Counted from the stretch's first letter, positions 27,375-51,909 are shown. The stretch is 64,000 nt of DNA from an uncultured Pseudomonadales bacterium (GCA_964603945.1 CAZRWP010000001.1:59623-123622); one strand, 5' to 3'. Translations and numbers: made by a program. Notes: a model not told the origin generated them from the sequence alone.

Positions 27375-27611
27375 ATGCGAGTATTATCCGTAAAAGTAAT
27401 TCCAAAGGCGAGCCGCAATGAAGTAACTCAGCTTTCGAAGGATAGCTTTAAGGTATATGTTACCTCGGTCGCGGAAAAAGGGAAAGCCAATAAGTCCATG
27501 CTTAAACTACTAGCTAAGCATTTGGGCTTACCGCCCTCCCACCTAATGATCTCCCGTGGAGATCGTTCCAACGATAAAACCGTGCTAGTATTGGAATCAG
27601 CTATCATATGA
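27375..27611 (+). CDS. DUF167 (YggU-like) family protein
   Basis: 'VKVIPKASRNEV..VYVTSVAEKGKANKSMLKLLAKHLGL' matches DUF167/UPF0235 pattern. Confidence 0.65.
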   Translation: MRVLSVKVIPKASRNEVTQLSKDSFKVYVTSVAEKGKANKSMLKLLAKHLGLPPSHLMISRGDRSNDKTVLVLESAII

Positions 27612-28615
27612 AAGTCTTAGTTACAGGCGGAGCCGGCTTTATTGGCTCACACTTTGTTCATTACTGGTTAGCAAATCATCCTGAGGATACCGTCGTTAAT
27701 TTTGATCTTTTAACTTACGCCGGCAATCTGGATAATTTGCAGGACATTGCTGATTCGCCCCAATATCAGTTTATTCAAGGCGATATTCGCGACGTTTCTG
27801 CTGTCGACCAGGTAATGACTGGTGTGGACATAGTGGTTCATTTTGCCGCCGAGACTCACGTGGACCGCTCAATATTAGAACCATCAGCTTTTGTGACCAC
27901 TAATGTGGTCGGCACCCAGGTTTTGCTGGACTCTGCCTTGCGACATCGGGTAAAACGATTTCACCATATCTCAACAGATGAGGTTTTCGGCAGTCTTGAA
28001 CTTGGTTCAGCTGAAAAATTCTCCGAAACCACTCCGTATGATCCACGCAGTCCTTACTCTGCTTCTAAAGCTGGCTCTGATCACTTGGTCCGTGCTTATG
28101 GCGAAACCTTTAATCTGCCAATTACTATCTCTAATTGCTCAAATAACTATGGTCCAAACATGTTCCCGGAAAAATACTTTCCGCTGGCCATCACCAATTT
28201 AATTGAGGGCAAAAACATTCCAATCTACGGTGATGGCTTAAATGTGCGCGACTGGCTATTTGTCACCGATCACTGCCGAGCAATTGAGGTAATTTTGCAA
28301 AATGGCCGCCTGGGAGAAACCTACTGCGTGGGAGGCCTAACCAAGGATGTATCTAATCATGAGATTGCCAAGATGATTCTAAACTTGATGAACTTGCCCG
28401 AAGACCGAATTGATTTTATAAAAGACCGGGCTGGCCATGACCGCCGTTATGCCATCGACTGGACCAAGATAAATCAAGAGCTTGGCTGGGCGCCATCAGT
28501 AACTTTGGAAGAGGGTTTGAGACAGACAATTGAGTGGTATCAGAACAATCAGAACTGGTGGCAGGCACTCAAACAAGCCAACGCCGATTATTTTAATAAG
28601 CAATATCAAGCCTAA
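27608..28615 (+). CDS. rmlB: dTDP-glucose 4,6-dehydratase
   Basis: 'MKVLVTGGAGFIGSHF' Rossmann, catalytic 'YSASKAGSDHLVRAY' YxxxK, 4-nt overlap with upstream gene. Confidence 0.85.
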   Translation: MKVLVTGGAGFIGSHFVHYWLANHPEDTVVNFDLLTYAGNLDNLQDIADSPQYQFIQGDIRDVSAVDQVMTGVDIVVHFAAETHVDRSILEPSAFVTTNVVGTQVLLDSALRHRVKRFHHISTDEVFGSLELGSAEKFSETTPYDPRSPYSASKAGSDHLVRAYGETFNLPITISNCSNNYGPNMFPEKYFPLAITNLIEGKNIPIYGDGLNVRDWLFVTDHCRAIEVILQNGRLGETYCVGGLTKDVSNHEIAKMILNLMNLPEDRIDFIKDRAGHDRRYAIDWTKINQELGWAPSVTLEEGLRQTIEWYQNNQNWWQALKQANADYFNKQYQA

Positions 28616-28634
28616 ACAGAGTGAGGAAATCAAG

Positions 28635-29252
28635 ATGAGTCAAACAATTAGCTACGAACCTCAACCATATGATGAATTTAGTCCAGGTATATACAAAACT
28701 CCTCTGGAGGAAGTTTATTTTATACCTTTTACTAAACACCCCGACCAACGGGGTTTTTACACAGAGCTAACTCGTCTGCCAGAATTAGACGCCGTTTTAA
28801 AGGAACCTTTTCAGCCAAGGCAGATAAATTTAAGTAATTCAAAAACTAAGGTGATCCGAGGTTTTCACGCTGAAAACTGGCAAAAATTAGTAACAATCAT
28901 AACTGGCACTGCTTTCTGTGCCTTGGCGGATTTTAGGCCACAATCACCACAATTTGGTCAAGTTATGACTGCCTCAATGGGAGAGAATGGATTAAACGGA
29001 TCTCTTTTTCTGCCCGCGGGTATCGGCAATTCTTTTTGTGTAACTCAGGGAGATTTAAATTATTTGTACGCCGTTGATCAGCTTTACCGCGATCGAGATT
29101 CAAGCGGTGATGTTGCTATTTCTTTGTTTGATTCAGATCTAAATGTCCAGTGGCCATTTGAGCAATCTGAATTAATAATCTCTGATCGTGATCGGGCATC
29201 CATATCACTGCGAGAGCGTTTTCCAGAAAAGTTCGGAGGTCAAGATGAATGA
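28635..29252 (+). CDS. rmlC: dTDP-4-dehydrorhamnose 3,5-epimerase (RmlC-like cupin)
   Basis: Start ATG at 28635 preceded by GAGGAAA SD; 'IRGFHAENWQKLVTIITG' cupin core; ORF-track start further upstream overlaps rmlB. Confidence 0.7.
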   Translation: MSQTISYEPQPYDEFSPGIYKTPLEEVYFIPFTKHPDQRGFYTELTRLPELDAVLKEPFQPRQINLSNSKTKVIRGFHAENWQKLVTIITGTAFCALADFRPQSPQFGQVMTASMGENGLNGSLFLPAGIGNSFCVTQGDLNYLYAVDQLYRDRDSSGDVAISLFDSDLNVQWPFEQSELIISDRDRASISLRERFPEKFGGQDE

Positions 29253-30159
29253 TGATATAGCTAGCAATTCAGGCAGTGATTTAACTAGTAGTTCAAATAA
29301 TATCTCAACTAAAGAATCAATATTGGGCACTGGCTTGTCTGGCTTAGTTGGTTCTGGACTGGTGAGCATTTTGAGTGACCGTTATCAGTTCCATAATCTT
29401 GATCTGACCAATGGAGTCAATATTTTAGAACCAAAGACACTGGAAAAAGCTTACGCTGAGCATCCATCACCAGTCTTAATTCATTTAGCCGCTTTTACAG
29501 ATGTTAACTCAGCCCAGGAACAAATGGGTCAAAAAGACGGGTCGGCTTATCAAGTAAACGTTACTGGCACCCGCAACGTCGCTGAGCTGTGCGCCAAGCA
29601 CAATATGCACCTTATTCACCTATCAACTGGTTATGTCTTTGATGGTGAAAAGCGTTCAGCTTATTCCGAAGATGATGCGGTAAATCCAGTTGACTGGTAC
29701 AGCGTGACCAAAACAGAAGCTGAAAAAGTTGTTCTGGACATTACACCAAACGCTACCATTTTCCGAATCAATTTCCCCTACCGGCAGGACGAATTTCCCA
29801 AAAAAGATATTTGGCATAAACTAGCTGAAGGTTTACAAGCTGGTAAAACCGGACCTTTTTTTGAAGATCATTTCTTTACTCTTACTCCGGTGGAATGGTT
29901 TGCTCAAGTTGTTGATTGGGCAATTACCACCAAGCCAGCCGGAATCTTTCACGCCACCACCGATCAAGTTTATACCGATCTATCACTGGCCCAATCAGTT
30001 GCCCAGGAGCTTGGCTTGTCTGTCAAGAATTTGAGTGGCGGCTCAGTCCATGAGTACAATAAGCAGGCGAACCGGCCATATCAGCCATCACTCATTTTAA
30101 GCAATGAGAAACTAAAACAAGCTATGGGCGATCGCTATCCAGATGGTAAAACAAGCTAA
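29245..30159 (+). CDS. rmlD: dTDP-4-dehydrorhamnose reductase with ~30-aa S/N-rich N-terminal extension
   Basis: Start at MNDDIAS (GGAGGT SD), 'IHLSTGYVFDG..Y.E.D..NPVDWYSVTK' RmlD motifs; 8-nt overlap with rmlC. Confidence 0.7.
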   Translation: MNDDIASNSGSDLTSSSNNISTKESILGTGLSGLVGSGLVSILSDRYQFHNLDLTNGVNILEPKTLEKAYAEHPSPVLIHLAAFTDVNSAQEQMGQKDGSAYQVNVTGTRNVAELCAKHNMHLIHLSTGYVFDGEKRSAYSEDDAVNPVDWYSVTKTEAEKVVLDITPNATIFRINFPYRQDEFPKKDIWHKLAEGLQAGKTGPFFEDHFFTLTPVEWFAQVVDWAITTKPAGIFHATTDQVYTDLSLAQSVAQELGLSVKNLSGGSVHEYNKQANRPYQPSLILSNEKLKQAMGDRYPDGKTS

Positions 30160-37144: not shown

Positions 37145-38617
37145 ATGAACATCACAACTGCCAGCCGAAAAGCCTGGAATAAATCAAAAATAACATTTAG
37201 CAAATACTTCCGGCGTAGCCGGATTTGGTTGCGCCGAAATCCTAATCGAGTAATGATTGCCTTCTTTGTCGTCATGGCAGTTTTATTGATTGCTGGGCGC
37301 TGGTTAAATAAACCAGAGCCTCCCACCGAACCCGCGCAGAATGAGCCCCGCTTGGTGGAAACTTACAGTATTGGCGCGGCTCCTCGTGTCACGGTTCAGG
37401 CTAGGGTACAAAAAGGTAATGTCATTAATATTGTGGCCCAGACACCGGGAATTGTTCAAAAAATTAATGTTAAAGAAGGCCAGTCGGTCAAGCGTGGCCA
37501 AAATTTAATTAGTTTGTCCAGTAATTATCAAGGTGGAAACGCCGCCACGGTTCAGCGGCAGATCGCGCAGGTTCAGCAACAGCACACGGCTGACACTTAC
37601 GATCAGCAAAAAAGTTTGCTTGATCAGCAAAGAGAAGTTGCTCTGCAAACTTCGGACAACGCCGAAGAATTACGCCAAATTACTGACCGCTCGCTGGGTG
37701 AAACCCGCGACCTGATCGACCTAAATGAAGACATTTTGTCGGAAATTGAGGACAACTTGGAAGATCTAGAGGAAAACAATCCCAACAATCAAAATGACCC
37801 ATTAATTCTGCAAACCAAACAACTCCAAAGCCAATACAAGGCAGGTTTAAATCAATTGCGATCTGGTTTAAGACAGGCAGAATATCAGGCTGATGATGAA
37901 GAACCACCAGCCGAACTAGCTCAACTTCAAAAAGATCTCACCCTTCAGCAATTGGATATTCAAGCTAAGTCACTCGACATGAGCAGAGAGATGGCCAATC
38001 TTCAGCTTAGATTAGCCAAAGTTAATGAAGGCAGTATGTATCCCGGCGCACCACTTGGAGGTCAAGTTGAGCGCATTCATGTTCAGATTGGTCAGCAAGT
38101 TAATCCAGGCACAAAGTTAGTTACTTTACAATCTTCCGGCCAAGCCACCACAGTGGTCGCTTTGGTGCCGCGTCAAATCGCTTTATCTTTATCCAAAATA
38201 GAGTTAACTAGACTTAATCTTGGCGACAAATCAATTGAATTAGCACCTACTTATGTTTCTCACGAGGCGGTAGAGAATGGTTTATATTCCATAGTTTTTA
38301 ATCTTCCTGAAACGGAGAACGTCAGTGTTAGCGACAATCAAGTGGTGGCAATTGACCTGCCAGTCGGATTAGCCGATACCAGCGATATCATTCCCTTTAT
38401 TCCGCTTGATGCGGTTTATCAAAATGGCCGCCAAGCGTTTGTCTTTACGGCTCAAGAGGAAAAAGCACGTGTACAACCAGTGAAGCTGGGCAGTGTATTT
38501 GGCAGTTTCGTCCAAATATCTGATGGACTTAAAAAAGAAGATCAAGTAATTCTTGACCGCAATGTAATTGACGGCGATCCCATCACCATAGTTAATCAAG
38601 GTCTTTTGACAGAGTAA
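37145..38617 (+). CDS. Efflux RND transporter periplasmic adaptor subunit (HlyD/MFP family)
   Basis: N-terminal TM, biotinyl/lipoyl-like hairpin and long coiled-coil, beta-barrel C-terminus; 8 nt upstream of RND permease. Confidence 0.65.
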   Translation: MNITTASRKAWNKSKITFSKYFRRSRIWLRRNPNRVMIAFFVVMAVLLIAGRWLNKPEPPTEPAQNEPRLVETYSIGAAPRVTVQARVQKGNVINIVAQTPGIVQKINVKEGQSVKRGQNLISLSSNYQGGNAATVQRQIAQVQQQHTADTYDQQKSLLDQQREVALQTSDNAEELRQITDRSLGETRDLIDLNEDILSEIEDNLEDLEENNPNNQNDPLILQTKQLQSQYKAGLNQLRSGLRQAEYQADDEEPPAELAQLQKDLTLQQLDIQAKSLDMSREMANLQLRLAKVNEGSMYPGAPLGGQVERIHVQIGQQVNPGTKLVTLQSSGQATTVVALVPRQIALSLSKIELTRLNLGDKSIELAPTYVSHEAVENGLYSIVFNLPETENVSVSDNQVVAIDLPVGLADTSDIIPFIPLDAVYQNGRQAFVFTAQEEKARVQPVKLGSVFGSFVQISDGLKKEDQVILDRNVIDGDPITIVNQGLLTE

Positions 38618-38624
38618 GGACAGC

Positions 38625-41600
38625 ATGGCTGATGAATGGCAATCCTATCTTGAACAGCTGAAGTTTGATCGCGCCTGGCTGAAAGGTTGGGTGGCTAGCT
38701 ATTTGACCAATGTTCGTCTGATGATCATGTTTATTTTGGCTGTGACCGCGGTTGGGGTTTGGGCATACCTAACCATGCCTCGCTCTCTCAATCCGGAAGT
38801 TGAACTGCCAATCGTAACGGTTGGAACCGCTTTTCCTGGTGCCTCGCCAGACAGTGTTGAAACTTTAGTGACCATACCAATTGAAAACGGCGTAAAAAAA
38901 GTTAAAGGACTTTCCACATATTCTTCAACTTCTCAGGAAGGATTTTCGCTTGTTTTTCTGGAATTTACTTCTGAAGTAAGTCCGCAGACAGCCCGCGACG
39001 AGGTTCGTGCTGTAGTTGACCAAATTACTCTGCCAGATGACGCCATGGATCCGCAAATTCAAGAGCTGGATTTTGAAGATATTCCAGTTTGGACCTTCGC
39101 TTTAATTAAGAAAAGTAATAGTGATACCGCAAGTTTGATGCGATTATCGGAGACAATCCAAGCTGAGCTTGAGAGTATGGCCATGGTTGATCGAGTTGAG
39201 CTAAGTGGATTTGATCGTCAGGAAATTCAAGTCTTGATCGACCCGACCACCATAAAAGAGCGCCAACTTGACCCTATGTCTTTAGCGGGAAGTTTGCGTA
39301 CTTCACTCCTATCATTTCCCGGCGGCTTAGTCTATACCGATAGAAATCAACTATCACTTGGCATGAATGCTTCTGCAGACAACTTAACCGACCTGCGAGA
39401 ACTGCCGTTAGCCATTAATGGCCAGACCTATCGCCTGGGTCAAATTGCTACCGTGATGGAAAGGTCCGTCCCTGGCCAACAACCGACTTTAATTGCCACT
39501 CCGAATTCTCCGCCCCAAAATGCTGTCCAGTTTTCTGCCTACCGAACTAAAACTACGCAGTTTGATGAAGCCGCAAAAGCTATGGAAGCCAAAGTAAATG
39601 AGCTTGTTGAACCATATCAGGACGGCTACGAAGTGGTTACGATCGCCAATTACAACAATGACATTGATATTCAGTTTGGCGACTTAGTTGATAATTTTTG
39701 GCAAACTCTGGCCTTGGTCGCTGGCACGATGTTCCTAATTTACGGACTGCGTCAGGCCACGGTCGCTTCACTAGCGATCCCCTTTCCTCTGCTAATTACG
39801 TTTGCCGTGATGGTGGTTATGGGCATATCGCTCAACTTCCTGTCAATTTTTTCTCTTCTAATTGCCCTAGGTTTATTTGTTGATAATGCCGTGGTTATTA
39901 TTGAAGGCTTTTCATCTTATTATCGTTCTGGCAAGTTCACGCCGCTCCAAACAGCTATACTTGTCTGGCGAGATTTTTCCATTCCCCTGATTTCGATCAA
40001 CTTAGTTACAGTCTGGGCATTTTTACCGCTGTTACTGTCCCAAGGCATTATTGGTGAATTCATCCGGCCACTGCCAATCATTGTGTCGGCGTCTATGTTT
40101 GCCTCAGTATTAATTGCCTTACTTTTCACTCTGCCTTCGATGATGCTATTAGCCAATCCCGCTTTGCCCAAACGGGTCAAGTATTTAATCAACGTTTTAT
40201 TTGGTCTAGTAATTTTGGCGGCTGGCTGGCTAGTAATCCCCAGCTCGCCATTAAAAATTCCAACCTTTTTCGTATTTATTTTGTTGTTGGCAGTCTTGCT
40301 TGGCTACCGCGGCCACTTATCTAATCTTTGGCAAAATACTAAAAATAGGTTTGCCTGGTCAGGAAAAATTGAGAGCTTTTTCCGGCGAATTCTAGATCAG
40401 GGATTGATCGATCTCAGACCAATATCTGCCTGGTATAGACGACAGATTATTAAACTGATGGCCACGCGCAGTGCCCGCCTAAAAACGCTGGCGTTTGTGT
40501 TGATATTTACATTGGCTACCTATTTATTACTGCCACTTGGATTTATTCGCAATGAATTTTTCCCTAACATGGACATGGATCAGCTATTTGTCTATGTTGA
40601 GCTTCCCCTGGGAACACGGGCTGATTTAACCTCAGCAGAAATGCAGTCTCTATTAGATGATGTTAGACAAACTCCAGGCACACGTCTGGCGGTGGGACAA
40701 GTGGGTCAAGGCGGCGGTGGCAATGTTCTAACTAACGCTGGCGGCGGACCAAACACTATTACCATTACTTTATTGCTTGAGCCAGCCGAGCAGCGAGAAC
40801 TCAGCTCTATGGAAATCGCTCAGCAGTTGCGCGATAAATATATTGACTATACTAATGGTAATTTACAGATTCAGGAGCTATCCGCTGGACCGCCTGCCGG
40901 CGCCGATGTCCAACTGACCATTCTCGGCGAAGACCTTAACATCATTGAAGGTTATGTCACCCAGCTGGAGGAGTATTTAAATCAGCAAGAAGGTGTGACC
41001 AACGTTAATAAGTCAGTAAAACCAGGGGCAAGTAAACTGACCTTTGAACCGGATCTGGACCAACTCCAGTCGCGCAATCTTAGCGAATCGCAGGTCGGCT
41101 ACTGGCTAAGACTTTTGGGCAGTGGAACAAATCTAGCCACGGCTCGGTTTGGCAATGACGAACAAGATATTACTCTACGCTTTTCACCTGAAATTGCCCA
41201 AGCTGGCGACATTAACCAGTTGGAAATTCCCGGACCACAAGGCTACACACCTTTAGCCCTACTCGGCAATCTGAAATTGGAACAAAATCCCACCGTAATT
41301 GCCCGAGAAAACGGTCAACGGAGTATGTCGGTAACCGCTGAGGTTTTAGACGGTTATTCTGTTTCTCTAATCAACCAGGAACTGCAAAACTACGCCGATT
41401 CACAGCTGGATTTCCCGCAGGGTTACAGCTGGAAAACCGGAGGCGTTAATGAGGAAAACGCGGAGTCTGTTGAGTCGACTCTTCAAGCCATGGCCATTTC
41501 TGCGATCTTAATTTTGATTTCGATGGTGGTTCAACTAAAATCTTTCCGTAAAGCTATTCTGGTTATGCTTGTAATTCCGCTGGCTATTTCCGGTGTTTTC

Positions 41601-41978
41601 TTCTGGTTTGCCGTAACTAACACGCCGCTCTCCTATCCAGCCTTAATTGGCCTTTTATCACTCTTTGGCATTGTGGTGGCCAACTCAATTGTTTTGGTTG
41701 ACAAAATTAATCAAAACTTGGAGGCCGGCTTAATTCAGCGGGACGCCATTGTTGACGCCGCCGCCAGCCGTCTGGAACCGATCGCCTTGACGTCCTTTGC
41801 TTCGATTGTCGGCCTAATCCCTATTACCCTAGCCGATCCACTTTGGCGTGGTTTGGGTGGTTCAATCATTGCAGGTCTATCATTTTCGGGAACTTTGATG
41901 CTCTTTTTCATTCCGGTGGTATATTATTATTTTTTCCCACAAGACCAGGGAAACGTTAAAAGTAAAAAGCGCCGATAA
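38625..41978 (+). CDS. Efflux RND transporter permease (AcrB/HAE family), 1117 aa
   Basis: 12-TM architecture with two large extracytoplasmic loops, 'AVGVWAYLTMP..LP..P.V.V.T..PGASP..VE' N-terminus typical of AcrB. Confidence 0.85.
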   Translation: MADEWQSYLEQLKFDRAWLKGWVASYLTNVRLMIMFILAVTAVGVWAYLTMPRSLNPEVELPIVTVGTAFPGASPDSVETLVTIPIENGVKKVKGLSTYSSTSQEGFSLVFLEFTSEVSPQTARDEVRAVVDQITLPDDAMDPQIQELDFEDIPVWTFALIKKSNSDTASLMRLSETIQAELESMAMVDRVELSGFDRQEIQVLIDPTTIKERQLDPMSLAGSLRTSLLSFPGGLVYTDRNQLSLGMNASADNLTDLRELPLAINGQTYRLGQIATVMERSVPGQQPTLIATPNSPPQNAVQFSAYRTKTTQFDEAAKAMEAKVNELVEPYQDGYEVVTIANYNNDIDIQFGDLVDNFWQTLALVAGTMFLIYGLRQATVASLAIPFPLLITFAVMVVMGISLNFLSIFSLLIALGLFVDNAVVIIEGFSSYYRSGKFTPLQTAILVWRDFSIPLISINLVTVWAFLPLLLSQGIIGEFIRPLPIIVSASMFASVLIALLFTLPSMMLLANPALPKRVKYLINVLFGLVILAAGWLVIPSSPLKIPTFFVFILLLAVLLGYRGHLSNLWQNTKNRFAWSGKIESFFRRILDQGLIDLRPISAWYRRQIIKLMATRSARLKTLAFVLIFTLATYLLLPLGFIRNEFFPNMDMDQLFVYVELPLGTRADLTSAEMQSLLDDVRQTPGTRLAVGQVGQGGGGNVLTNAGGGPNTITITLLLEPAEQRELSSMEIAQQLRDKYIDYTNGNLQIQELSAGPPAGADVQLTILGEDLNIIEGYVTQLEEYLNQQEGVTNVNKSVKPGASKLTFEPDLDQLQSRNLSESQVGYWLRLLGSGTNLATARFGNDEQDITLRFSPEIAQAGDINQLEIPGPQGYTPLALLGNLKLEQNPTVIARENGQRSMSVTAEVLDGYSVSLINQELQNYADSQLDFPQGYSWKTGGVNEENAESVESTLQAMAISAILILISMVVQLKSFRKAILVMLVIPLAISGVFFWFAVTNTPLSYPALIGLLSLFGIVVANSIVLVDKINQNLEAGLIQRDAIVDAAASRLEPIALTSFASIVGLIPITLADPLWRGLGGSIIAGLSFSGTLMLFFIPVVYYYFFPQDQGNVKSKKRR

Positions 41979-47229: not shown

Positions 47230-47952
47230 CTAGCAACCTAAGCTGGCACGGCATTGCTGTTGAGCTGAACCGGCGGGCAGTTGATCACAAATTCCACATT
47301 GATCCTCATCACCTTGAACCGGAGCTTGGTCTGTTGTAGGCATGAATTGCTCGCTCATATCCATGAATTGCACGTCAGCGGGTGGAGCAAAACTGTCGTC
47401 ATTGGGAATCCAGGGCCGGCAATTGAAATCAAACTCGGCTGAATCGTCGAAATTAAATTCATCTGAACTGGTATCTTCGGCTGAATCTTCGACTGTTTCC
47501 TCATCCTCGGCCAGGTCATCAACCAGCAAATCGTCGTCGTCGATGGTCATCTTTACACCTTGAGTCTGTCCATCTGTCCACATGTATTGAACATCACCAT
47601 CTCTAATAACATGAGTGACCATAACCCCCTCATTTGGCATGGTTGAGGAAAAGTTACCGCGGAAACGCGTCTCGCCACTGACAAATACCTCACCCTCAAT
47701 TAGTCCGCCATCTGGATCTGTTGATTGATAATCACACTGCGTGCTCGATCCGGCCATCATTAATTGGCGCAAACTACTGCGTTTGGTTTGTTCACCACTG
47801 ACTGAGTCAGCAGTCTCCTGAGAATTGTCCGCCGACTGTGAGTTGGTATTGACTGCTTCATCCGCCACCGAGCGATTCGACTGCCAATACCAGGCGCCAA
47901 CGGCACCGGCTAACAAAATAATGATTAGAGCAATCAGGAGATTTTTGTTCAT
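47230..47952 (-). CDS. Secreted/membrane-anchored acidic Cys-containing protein
   Basis: N-terminal TM/signal (LLIALIIILLAGAVGAW), D/E-rich central region, C-terminal Cys cluster 'CGICDQ..QQQCRASLGC'. Confidence 0.45.
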   Translation of the reverse strand: MNKNLLIALIIILLAGAVGAWYWQSNRSVADEAVNTNSQSADNSQETADSVSGEQTKRSSLRQLMMAGSSTQCDYQSTDPDGGLIEGEVFVSGETRFRGNFSSTMPNEGVMVTHVIRDGDVQYMWTDGQTQGVKMTIDDDDLLVDDLAEDEETVEDSAEDTSSDEFNFDDSAEFDFNCRPWIPNDDSFAPPADVQFMDMSEQFMPTTDQAPVQGDEDQCGICDQLPAGSAQQQCRASLGC

Positions 47953-48070
47953 ATATCAGAATTATAGGCGGGCTTATCAGCCGGCGCAAGATAGCAAATC
48001 GATCAAACCCTCTCTTAAATAATGGCTATTGTATCTAAGCCGATAATTATTTAGGCTCAGGGGGTACGAT

Positions 48071-49762
48071 TATGCAGAATTTAACACAAGAGCAAAATGT
48101 TCATCCTTTTGATTTACAACCGCCACTGCCAGACTGCCCAGTAGTTAATTATAAAAAGGGCGGACCCGAATATGAGGACTCAATCAAATAATATTTGGAA
48201 CAACTCCTGGAATTTGCCAAAGCTACTGGCGTTTGACAGGCAGTCATAGACGCACTAGCTGGCGACAGCGGCTTTACCAACCTTAGCTCGCATCCGCTCA
48301 AAAATACTGAACACTTACAGCCACCAACTGGTAGTGGTCAAGGCCTGGTTGTAACCGGCTATGAGGAAACATATTCCCCTGATTTAGAAGTGATTGATCT
48401 AATGGAAACCAATCCAGAGATGGTTGATGAAATTCTTTACGCTTGGCTCTACCACTTGGCTTTATTCAATCATCCAGAGCACTTAGATGCTCTTTATCAG
48501 GTGGCCAAGAATCATTTTAAAGCTCCTAAAGAACGAAAAAATAAAGCCTTGGAACTTGCCAAGAAACGGGGGGAGGCAGTAAGTATTTTGGAGCTAGCCA
48601 TGCGGATTCCGGAACAAACCAAATACCCTCGGATGAGCCGAACTAAAATCCTCACCCTGGGAGGATTGTATTTCAATATGGGTCGCATAGTTAAAGACTC
48701 TGAAGAAATCTTTGGTCGAATGCAAGCTAGAAATGTAATTGTGGCCGGCGAAAACCCCGATATTACGGGATCGCCATTAATGCTGGCCTCCATGGCCGCA
48801 GCTCACCGTTTAGTGGGAATTCCCAGAGACGGTATTTTTACGGATATTGCGCGCCAAGCAAAGTTAGCTGGCGAATCCTTAAAGTTACTGGAGGAGCTTA
48901 GCCAACTTTTTGGCCGAAACAAGGAAGAACGAAAAACTCCTGTTAGATTGGTACAAGCACAACTTAGTAGGAGTTGTTGAAGCTAATCCAGATCCAGCTA
49001 TAGAAAGGGCTCAGGCTCTCTATGATGCTGGCGTCCGTACCTTTAGGGTGTATTCGCCAGAGCCAAGTGATCAGTTAGTCCAAACAGTTAAAGCTTTGCG
49101 CCAACACCAAAAAGAACAAGGCTGGGAACCGATTGAAATATTCGCTGGCCAGGTAGTGAGTGTCAGTCAAGCTAAAGAATTGGAAGATGCTGGCTGTGAT
49201 GGTCTTTATTGGCGTGGGTGGTGGGGGCCGGTGTATTACAGGTAATGTCGCCAACCTGGCAATTGATTGGCCTCAGCTACTATGGTCATTACGCGGAAAA
49301 ATTAAGATTCCAGTGATAGTCCAAGGAGGAGCAAATGACAATCCAGCCACTACCATTGCCTTGGGCGGCTCAGGAATTGGAGCGGTCGGTGCAATGGGCG
49401 GAAGCCTCGAAAGTCCAGGTGGAACTTTATACTTTTATGACCCTAAAACAGGTGAAATCTTTAAGTTTTATGGAGGTGAAGCTTCTAATCGAATGCGCGC
49501 AATGGCGGATCGCGAAGATATATTTGGGAGAACCATTAATACAGAAGGTGAAACCGCTAGAAAGTTCTTTAAAAATAATCCTTTTCAAGGAATATATGCT
49601 ACTGCCCTTCAAAGGCTTACTGAAATGCTGGAACGAATTTCAACCGGTTTAGGCTTTCAAAATGCCAGAAATATCAGAAAACAACAAAAAAGAACAAAGA
49701 ATGTCCGGCGTGAGGCTCCTATCATGAGCCTATCTAGAAACCCGCACGATACGCATCCCTAA
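48071..49762 (+). pseudogene. IMPDH/GuaB3-like TIM-barrel gene disrupted by 2-3 frameshifts
   Basis: Consecutive overlapping ORFs in three frames (48390..48980, 48910..49245, 49160..49762, plus possible 48071..48193) carry successive IMPDH-family motifs ('GVRTFRVYSPEPS..', 'KIPVIVQGGANDNPATTIALGGSGIGAVGAMGGS', 'FYGGEASN'); second shift coincides with G5 run near 49215. Confidence 0.45.
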
Positions 49763-51368: not shown

Positions 51369-51602
51369 ATGTAAGTGGAGGAATTCACCCGCTCAGGCTC
51401 ATAGCTTCTATTTTGGTATTCGCTTGAGCGAGTACCTTGATGAGAATCCCCTTTCTTTCAATAAAAAAACCTGCCAGGTGGAGGGATTCCCCGACTCTCC
51501 CTGATTTTCATCAGGGCTCGCTGGACTAGGCAGGTGTTCGCAAGCTTGCTCACACTTGCCGTCGGAACATAGGCTTCGCACCCAATTACCTCTACCAACA
51601 AA

Positions 51603-51630
51603 AAAATCCCCACTCGGGGATCTTTTTTGT
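51603..51630. terminator. Bidirectional rho-independent terminator (3' of tRNA-Ser)
   Basis: AAAAAA-ATCCCC-ACTC-GGGGAT-CTTTTTTG: 6-bp GC-rich stem flanked by A-run and T-run. Confidence 0.55.
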
Positions 51631-51718
51631 TGGCGGAGGTGGAGGGATTCGAACCCACGCAACCGGTAAAGGTTCAGGTTTAGCAAACCTGTGCAATTGG
51701 CCACTATGCGACACCTCC
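51631..51718 (-). tRNA. tRNA-Ser (anticodon GCU), class II with long variable arm
   Basis: Reverse complement: acceptor GGAGGTG/CACCTCC, anticodon stem CAGGT/ACCTG with loop TTGCTAA (GCU), 16-nt variable arm, T-loop TTCGAAT, encoded CCA. Confidence 0.8.
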
Positions 51719-51909
51719 TGGTCAGATGAACAGTTTCATCTGGGTCAGCTTGGGTATTATAACGGTGAAATCGGCCAGCGCCAACCAGACAGCAAGAACT
51801 AATCTCGCCCAAGTTAAACATCGTCAAAATTATGACCTGATTTATTTTTTATCAACTTATTACATATTTTTAACAATTTTCCAACAAATTTGTTTTAGCG
51901 TGACAATTT

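Follow-up and report, generated by a model that had tools for sequence, protein, structure and literature searches.

Parallel lesions and recombination at a very probable pseudogene of a Patescibacteria-clade IMPDH-superfamily enzyme

Nucleotides 48072-49762 of a 64,000-nucleotide metagenomic stretch deposited under an uncultured Pseudomonadales bacterium (GCA_964603945.1, CAZRWP010000001.1:59623-123622; the whole stretch is hereafter the window, whose coordinates are used throughout) hold, on the plus strand, one 563-codon gene of the IMPDH/GMP-reductase superfamily, with coordinates that we rechecked. We conclude with high confidence that this region is a genuine, recently inactivated pseudogene of an IMPDH-superfamily enzyme from a Patescibacteria clade. 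In the proposed history, the ancestor would have encoded a 563-amino-acid (aa) enzyme of the superfamily, which two nonsense codons, a +1 insertion and a -2 deletion would disable in the window strain; the species-level population would no longer maintain the gene, every sampled haplotype being broken, while homologous recombination would shuffle lesions and divergent tracts among haplotypes. The putative cause is relaxed (or reversed) selection on the enzyme. As a pseudogene the feature is of an ordinary kind and represents no new kind of system; what is noteworthy is the resolved, parallel and recombining decay, and the family behind it.

One gene in three reading frames

Intact homologues (P0001-P0004) match the window by tblastn in three consecutive frames (frame 1, 48117-48935; frame 2, 48898-49209; frame 3, 49202-49747; best E = 1e-101), and the family profile recognizes each of the three pieces (E = 2e-65, 2e-52 and 3e-81, respectively). 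From the open reading frame (ORF) listing and a three-frame translation, frame 0 runs from the ATG, ahead of which lies a Shine-Dalgarno-like AGGGGG at 48059-64, to ~48930 and is interrupted by one TAA and one TGA; a frame 1 piece follows from ~48932 to 49206, and a frame 2 piece from ~49207 to the terminal stop. An earlier interpretation made from the DNA alone (the sequence-only reading) had proposed that successive ORFs carry consecutive parts of one IMPDH-family protein, which these matches bear out; both motifs that it quoted are present, in the ORF at 49160-49762. It had counted three to four frames, and three of them stand, the fourth being accounted for by nonsense codons: the gene comprises three frames and two internal stops. 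Similarly, the upstream ORF of ~40 aa that it placed in frame 2 does belong to the gene, but lies in frame 0, where the 39-aa ORF at 48072-48191 is the true N-terminus; it shares its frame with the ORF at 48390-48980, from which two in-frame stops and no frameshift separate it.

Homology spans 97% of the query against homologues of 552-553 aa, with two stops and two frameshifts mapped (lesions a to d, Table 1); these were first predicted by alignment to homologues and afterwards confirmed against sister alleles. The TAA of lesion a is present in every A-type contig, and the site of lesion b aligns to W in P0001-P0004, a Trp conserved among the nearest homologues (ETGVW). Lacking the inserted G of lesion c, the sister alleles L091, L096 and L104 read EEQKLLLDWY or its equivalent in a single frame; the A5 run beside the lesion is constant in length, and slippage from A4 to A5 was ruled out as the mechanism because the sister alleles show a G insertion. 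At lesion d, sister alleles read GAT GGT CTT TAT ATT GGC where the window has ...TAT T GGC, the ancestral CTT TAT ATT GGC being found in L001, L004, L091, L092, L095, L096 and L104. The sequence-only reading had located this frame change at a G5 homopolymer; the real site is the TA deletion, and the G5 run (49223-27) is itself in frame, where it codes for the invariant GGGG ahead of Arg-Cys, and is identical in length in all alleles that cover it. With stops at codons 40 and 55 and two frameshifts in the barrel, a full-length product would not be expected.

Two observations touch this region directly. One allele of the window haplotype without the TA deletion (L095, from ERR6160967) carries GGT>GAT at 49218, exchanging for Asp a near-invariant Gly (>90% of sequences) of the GGGG loop; the same change occurs in fragment P0161 (SRR5690606), and it is probably an additional inactivating missense change. 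Separately, the protein collection, whose sources for them include NCBI, lists the segments 48402-48980 and 49187-49762 as two distinct proteins, one of 192 aa and one of 191 aa; they should be annotated as one pseudogene.

Twelve lesions among recombining haplotypes

The same locus was retrieved from many assemblies, in the Logan, JGI, ENA and NCBI collections, by exact-protein look-ups of neighbouring genes; one DNA-pattern scan of JGI metagenomes, with a pattern around lesion a, found haplotype B, and a metagenome scan with a pattern around lesion d gave no match. Independent assemblies, representing at least 15 datasets, reproduce the window lesions, and the ancestral states predicted from homologues (TTA, TGG, no G, TATATT) are found in sister haplotypes; the lesions are biological. 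Two contigs are identical to the window at the locus (L002 and L003, with identical assemblies from SRR7082976 and SRR7082982), while two others at 99% identity (L001 and L004, from SRR30791824 and SRR28624430) share lesions a, b and c but retain the ancestral TATATT. Haplotypes B to F have both ancestral codons and, where the site is present, no inserted G. The suggestion of the sequence-only reading that this is a decaying purine-metabolism gene is supported by the parallel lesions and the ancestral sister states.

With the single-frame allele D as reference and outgroup for polarity, all window lesions are derived. Twelve distinct disabling lesions (a to l; seven nonsense, four small frameshifts and one 870-bp deletion) are distributed over haplotypes A, A', A'', B, C, D, E and F. 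Haplotype A (the window, L002 and L003) carries a, b, c and d; A' (L001, L004) carries a, b and c; and A'' (L097) adds to these l, a GAA>TAA change at codon 43. Haplotype B (L087, L088 and L102, with L106 and L107 assigned by ORF pattern) bears e, f and g, and haplotype C (L091, L099) bears i, e and h, the last an AG insertion after 49558 seen in L091 only. Single lesions characterize D (L096, and L105, which covers the first 1223 nt only) with j, E (L104) with k, and F (L108) with f, without e or g. No intact allele was present among the full-length contigs examined. Lesion g, aligned in L087, L088 and L102 and deduced in L106 and L107 from a pattern of 82/55/89-aa ORFs, removes most of the barrel together with the Cys loop; the idea that this deletion restores the frame in lineage B was ruled out by translation. 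Three protein fragments (P0176, P0178, P0179) that carry f and g but not e fix the sequence of events in lineage B: f came first, g second and e last. At least four founding lesions (that of the A clade, e, j and k) are independent.

Recombination carries lesions from one background to another: lesion e is found, along with its linked variant 48329C, on three distinct backgrounds, and contig L098 combines a, b and e. The alleles are recombination mosaics. Deeply divergent mosaic tracts occupy the 3' third of the gene (Table 1), with ratios of nonsynonymous to synonymous divergence (dN/dS) of 0.12-0.27 in the two tracts measured. They look like recombination imports from unsampled relatives, and no donor was found among 120 homologues. 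Elsewhere in the window, 20 differences from the 99%-identical L001 cluster at 37250-37500, inside the membrane-fusion-protein gene at 37145-38617, against a background of ~1 per 300-500 bp, and probably mark another recombination tract.

Table 1. Positions of the gene, its lesions and its mosaic tracts in the window
Feature	Position	Strand	State in the window and in other alleles
Whole pseudogene	48072..49762	+	ATG start 48072, TAA stop 49760-62; tblastn with intact homologues, PF00478 match
Lesion a: in-frame TAA, codon 40; ancestral TTA (Leu)	48189..48191	+	TTA in haplotypes B, C, D, E, F
Codon 43, GAA	48198-200	+	Intact in window; TAA (lesion l) in L097
Codon 47, GAA	48210-12	+	Intact in window; TAA (lesion i) in L091 and L099
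Lesion b: in-frame TGA, codon 55; ancestral TGG (Trp)	48234..48236	+	TGG in B, C, D, E, F
Codon 83, CAG	48318..48320	+	Intact in window; TAG (lesion e) in B, C and recombinant L098
A6 run	48536..48541	+	Intact in window; -1 frameshift (lesion f) in B, F
Segment between 8-bp direct repeats TGGAACTT (48550-57 and 49420-27)	48550..49427	+	870 bp lost (lesion g) in B
Codon 208, AAA	48693..48695	+	Intact in window; TAA (lesion j), sole lesion of D (L096)
Lesion c: +1 G insertion, GAAGAAC[G]AAAAAC, frame 0 to 1	48931..48931	+	G absent in C (L091), D (L096), E (L104)
Mosaic tract 1	49119..49299	+	Window versus A', C, D: ~20 clustered differences; dN/dS 0.12 over 49117-49190
Codon 351, TGG	49123..49125	+	Intact in window; TGA (lesion k), sole lesion of E (L104)
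Lesion d: 2-bp TA deletion inside TATATT, frame 1 to 2	49207..49210	+	TA missing only in window, L002, L003
Active-site loop, GGT GGT GGG GGC CGG TGT = GGGGRC	49217..49234	+	Catalytic Cys codon TGT 49232-34
Mosaic tract 2	49498..49621	+	Two deep haplotypes (window, C, D versus A', B), ~25% nucleotide divergence, dN/dS 0.27
Mosaic tract 3	49628..49714	+	A, A', B versus C, D, E haplotypes

Timing, selection and competing explanations

The repaired protein differs from the family at none of 55 invariant and two of 39 near-invariant positions, within the range of intact members, and a comparison of haplotype D with the ingroup ancestor gives a dN/dS of 0.20-0.23 at a dS of ~0.2 (the comparison relative for the ratio of ~0.2 being 95% identical). 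The low ratio and the conserved positions place the gene under purifying selection until recently, and the inactivation is recent. Of 81 loci examined in other species, 80 have an intact family gene, contig-end truncations set aside, whereas the haplotypes sampled within this species are all broken. The only other split among the 81 loci lies at L009:5890-7419, in a metagenome-assembled genome (MAG) labelled Limisphaerales, where ORFs of 416 and 86 aa may represent a second independent pseudogene or an assembly error.

Patterns of substitution give evidence on either side of the question whether the loss was selected. In the low-divergence backbone (A, A', B, C), four of 12 substitutions are nonsense, against a mutational opportunity of 4.3-5.0% (P=0.0013), rising to four of eight in codons 1-349 of the same backbone (P=0.00025), although leaving the tracts out of this count was a post hoc choice. 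Codons 40-83 hold five of the seven nonsense lesions with 16.5% of the opportunity (P=0.0019). When all polymorphism is counted, including the mosaic tracts, D and E, nonsense changes make up 7/267 (2.6%), not above the neutral 4.8%, so that a global nonsense enrichment fails once divergent tracts are included. The missense-to-synonymous ratio is 0.98 in the gene and 0.46 in the flanks, that is, twice as high. A Fisher test of the seven nonsense changes in the gene against the flanks, where none was confirmed and 0 was entered, gives P=0.0016. The flanks here are five genes (605, 321, 240, 123 and 378 aa) called full length in every contig, with 205 synonymous, 95 missense and no confirmed nonsense substitutions; our script gave one nonsense call and two alleles with internal stops, all coinciding with 3-nt indels, and we treated these stops as alignment artefacts because gene callers report the products full length (604 and 239 aa).

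Since the global enrichment fails, we take relaxed selection as the default and do not put adaptive loss forward as the leading account; it is an open but lesser possibility. Under the adaptive alternative, knock-outs would be positively selected in parallel, recombination would stack them, and early stops would be favoured against costly or toxic truncated products. We consider this account possible though doubtful. The four or more founding lesions in lineages otherwise under purifying selection (dN/dS ~0.2), the backbone excess and 5' clustering of nonsense changes, their confinement to the gene rather than its flanks, and the downstream-to-upstream order of f, g and e in lineage B all speak for it. 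Yet the excess vanishes over all polymorphism and depends on the post hoc exclusion of tracts, the doubled missense-to-synonymous ratio is what plain relaxation predicts, lesion l, being downstream of lesion a within one haplotype, must be neutral, and more partial contigs cover the 5' end than the 3' end; moreover, we know of no benefit of losing the enzyme. That loss was actively selected, with early stops favoured, in landfill- or wastewater-type populations is accordingly a tentative suggestion. If it were true, the enzyme's activity or its truncated products would have turned harmful, for instance because the host or the nucleotide supply had changed, or under phage or toxic-nucleotide pressure. 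Haplotype B was recovered from Ga0172382, a landfill leachate well in which Patescibacteria dominate (PMC9723747).

An improbable alternative is that the copy is a redundant duplicate, made dispensable by a functional paralogue elsewhere that also donates the divergent tracts by gene conversion. Tracts of ~25% divergence with dN/dS of 0.12-0.27 in an otherwise near-identical pseudogene are what copies from a functional relative would produce, and some genomes carry a second IMPDH-superfamily gene beside the family gene. Against this, the 64-kb window holds no second family member or IMPDH-like ORF; no homologue above 55% identity occurs among the matches listed from 5.8 billion proteins, and no listed homologue is close to any tract variant; and the neighbouring paralogues elsewhere are canonical short IMPDHs rather than close copies.

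Relaxed loss of a real gene must also be set against two readings in which the gene is not broken at all, each of which the data contradict and we regard as extremely improbable. The first is that sequencing or assembly error, particularly at homopolymers, disrupted an intact gene, as the sequence-only reading had allowed. Lesion c does adjoin an A5 run, and the window is a metagenome-assembled contig; but the lesions are two substitutions, a G insertion that leaves the A run unchanged and a TA deletion, they recur on the same haplotype assembled independently from several runs and projects across NCBI, Logan, JGI and ENA, and elsewhere the window has a coding density of 86% and 54 long ORFs that are intact. 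The second is that phase variation (also proposed earlier, as a variable run), programmed frameshifting, readthrough or an alternative code keeps the gene functional: TGA replaces Trp twice (b and k), as under UGA=Trp, and lesion f of another lineage falls in an A6 run, yet the G5 run is neither a lesion site nor variable in length, lesion d occurs in one haplotype only, lesions differ by strain, homologues and sister alleles are single-frame with no conserved recoding site, and lineage B lacks 870 bp including the active-site loop. An alternative code with UGA=Trp was ruled out, because all three stops terminate ordinary ORFs of the window (TGA 5, TAA 38 and TAG 11 of 54) and TAA and TAG lesions also occur.

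Several points weigh against the pseudogene account. Clusters of near-identical fragments are missing from the protein search list, and an intact allele of >90% identity could exist unseen; an exact look-up of four hypothetical repaired allele sequences in the protein collection found none, which is a weak test. Haplotypes D and E have a single stop each and might retain partial function: the D stop lies in the linker between extension and barrel, with an in-frame ATG after it, and the E stop is a TGA at a Trp codon and potentially leaky. The alleles are known from assembled contigs and the gene product from sequence, and, with 64 kb examined of a contig that measures at least 288.7 kb, a functional paralogue elsewhere in the genome is possible.

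The enzyme family and its relation to known systems

The stitched protein matches PF00478 with 63.6 bits (cut-off 25.6) over residues 291-543, its last fragment alone reaching 30.4 bits, and no CBS family appears among its Pfam matches at E<=1. An AlphaFold2 model of the repaired protein (pLDDT 91.1, pTM 0.93) finds its top PDB matches by Foldseek in IMPDH catalytic domains, as CBS-deleted constructs (E 3e-15, target-normalised template-modelling (TM) score 0.78-0.82, 17-20% identity), and thus predicts a catalytic (beta/alpha)8 barrel. In 40 sequences the residues G384-G385-G386-R387-C388 are invariant, as is T390, two residues past the Cys, in a loop that follows beta6 and aligns to GIGPGSICTT of solved IMPDHs.

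We collected 310 homologues, mostly of 500-570 aa, the best 54% identical. They come mainly from MAGs of Woesebacteria, Pacebacteria, Amesbacteria, Dojkabacteria, Collierbacteria and Levybacteria, with a few MAGs labelled Chloroflexota, and form a clade found almost only in Patescibacteria, namely Microgenomates-type bacteria of the candidate phyla radiation (CPR). Its members share an N-terminal extension of ~150-200 aa, an IMPDH-like barrel and the Cys/Thr loop, and lack a CBS domain. The earlier proposal that decay fits a reduced genome is plausible, and the nearest homologues are indeed from Woesebacteria and other Microgenomates. No close intact orthologue was found, the best GTDB and protein matches being 50-55% identical, nor any synteny with the P0001 locus, and we found no paper on this family in Patescibacteria.

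Gene neighbourhoods offer some indication of function. In 18 of the 81 loci (among L006-L086; for example L031:5305-6060, L019 and L078), the family gene has a Ham1/ITPase gene (PF01725) as its head-to-head neighbour, at gaps of 23-290 bp, which suggests a functional link to the house-cleaning of inosine and xanthosine triphosphates (ITP/XTP) to the monophosphates IMP and XMP; no Ham1 gene lies in the 64-kb window. A canonical, CBS-less IMPDH of 384 aa is found near the family gene in three loci (L007:5671-6822, L012:5671-6822 and L009:2825-3976), directly upstream of it in L007 and L012, and scores 394 bits (L007) and 367 bits (L009) against TIGR01302. Hence the family coexists with guaB as a paralogue and does not replace it. 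On the basis of these neighbourhoods it is probably tied to IMP/XMP metabolism, and the ancestral substrate would be a purine nucleotide such as IMP, XMP or guanosine monophosphate (GMP).

Around the pseudogene, the 240-aa flanking protein (47230-47952, minus strand) is hydrophobic in a segment near its N-terminus, and its C-terminal part is acidic and contains Cys; precomputed gene tables give it no Pfam family, one JGI record names it pseudopilin PulG, and its missense-to-synonymous ratio among haplotypes is ~1 (22 versus 21), the top value of the flanking genes. Between this divergently oriented gene and the pseudogene start, the interval 47956-47995 has eight linked differences separating B, E and F from A and D, which may reflect promoter-region divergence or a recombination boundary. 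Further afield, 37145-41978 encodes an efflux pair of the resistance-nodulation-division (RND) type in an apparent Patescibacteria genome; it consists of a membrane-fusion protein of 490 aa and an ACR_tran/HAE1 transporter of 1117 aa. A mechanically called 139-aa ORF at 51408-51827 (minus strand) overlies a tRNA-Ser(GCT) at 51631-51718 and is probably not a gene, and the overlapping ORFs at 27608-30159, considered as a broken gene, proved to be intact rmlB, rmlC and rmlD with mechanical upstream starts.

Together, these alleles offer a population-resolved view of a CPR bacterium in the course of losing a gene, with polarity and a partial order for 12 lesions, and could be used to test relaxed against adaptive loss in ultra-small symbiotic bacteria. 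They also draw attention to a widespread, uncharacterised IMPDH-superfamily clade of Patescibacteria, of which at least one lineage evidently no longer needs the enzyme.

A near relative in fold is the catalytic domain of canonical bacterial GuaB (PDB 6mgr, 4ixh, 3ffs), which shares PF00478 and aligns at TM 0.78-0.82 over ~400 columns. The family motif GIGGGGRC[IT]TG aligns with GIGPGSICTT, conserving Cys and Thr, and IPVIV[EQ]GG, ESPGG and YGGEAS resemble IPIIADGG, EESPG and YRGMGS of GuaB. The differences are nonetheless considerable. Identity is 17-20% and the CBS/Bateman domain is missing; the stitched protein scores 49.2 bits against TIGR01302, where the cut-off is 481.5, and the intact P0001 and P0045 score 39.8 and 45.7; the N-terminal ~150-200 aa have conserved motifs of their own (QGL..T, AWLYYLELFNHPER, SRT); an Arg precedes the catalytic Cys, Glu or Gln replaces the ribose-binding Asp, and GGEAS replaces RGMGS. 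As the family coexists with a canonical short IMPDH in some genomes, its reaction is probably a different one, and the window copy, unlike GuaB, is to all appearances dead. GMP reductase (GuaC; GuaB1-type, PDB 6lk4) is the best single-sequence PDB match (E 5e-14) and has the same superfamily and Cys loop, but its models (TIGR01305, TIGR01306, NF003470, NF052358) give 14.6-32 bits, far below their cut-offs of 344-675. GuaB3 is IMPDH-related and without a CBS domain, as here; the sequence-only label of GuaB3-like nevertheless had to be dropped while its placement in the wider family held through PF00478, since TIGR01304 matches neither the stitched protein (E<=1) nor P0001 and P0045 (E<=1e-5), and a canonical short IMPDH used as control matches at 2e-30.

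At the population level, a comparable general phenomenon is parallel loss-of-function polymorphism, in which a bacterial species harbours numerous knock-out alleles of a single gene that arose independently; by analogy, the locus described here would be such a case. Pseudogenes have been reported to make up 5-10% of genes in CPR MAGs, for example of Parcubacteria, and have been read as ongoing gene loss (PMC11188291). Those streamlining genomes resemble ours in containing disabled genes in small, symbiont-like genomes, whereas what we describe is a single locus followed at population level, with 12 lesions, their polarity and partial order, and dead alleles that recombine.

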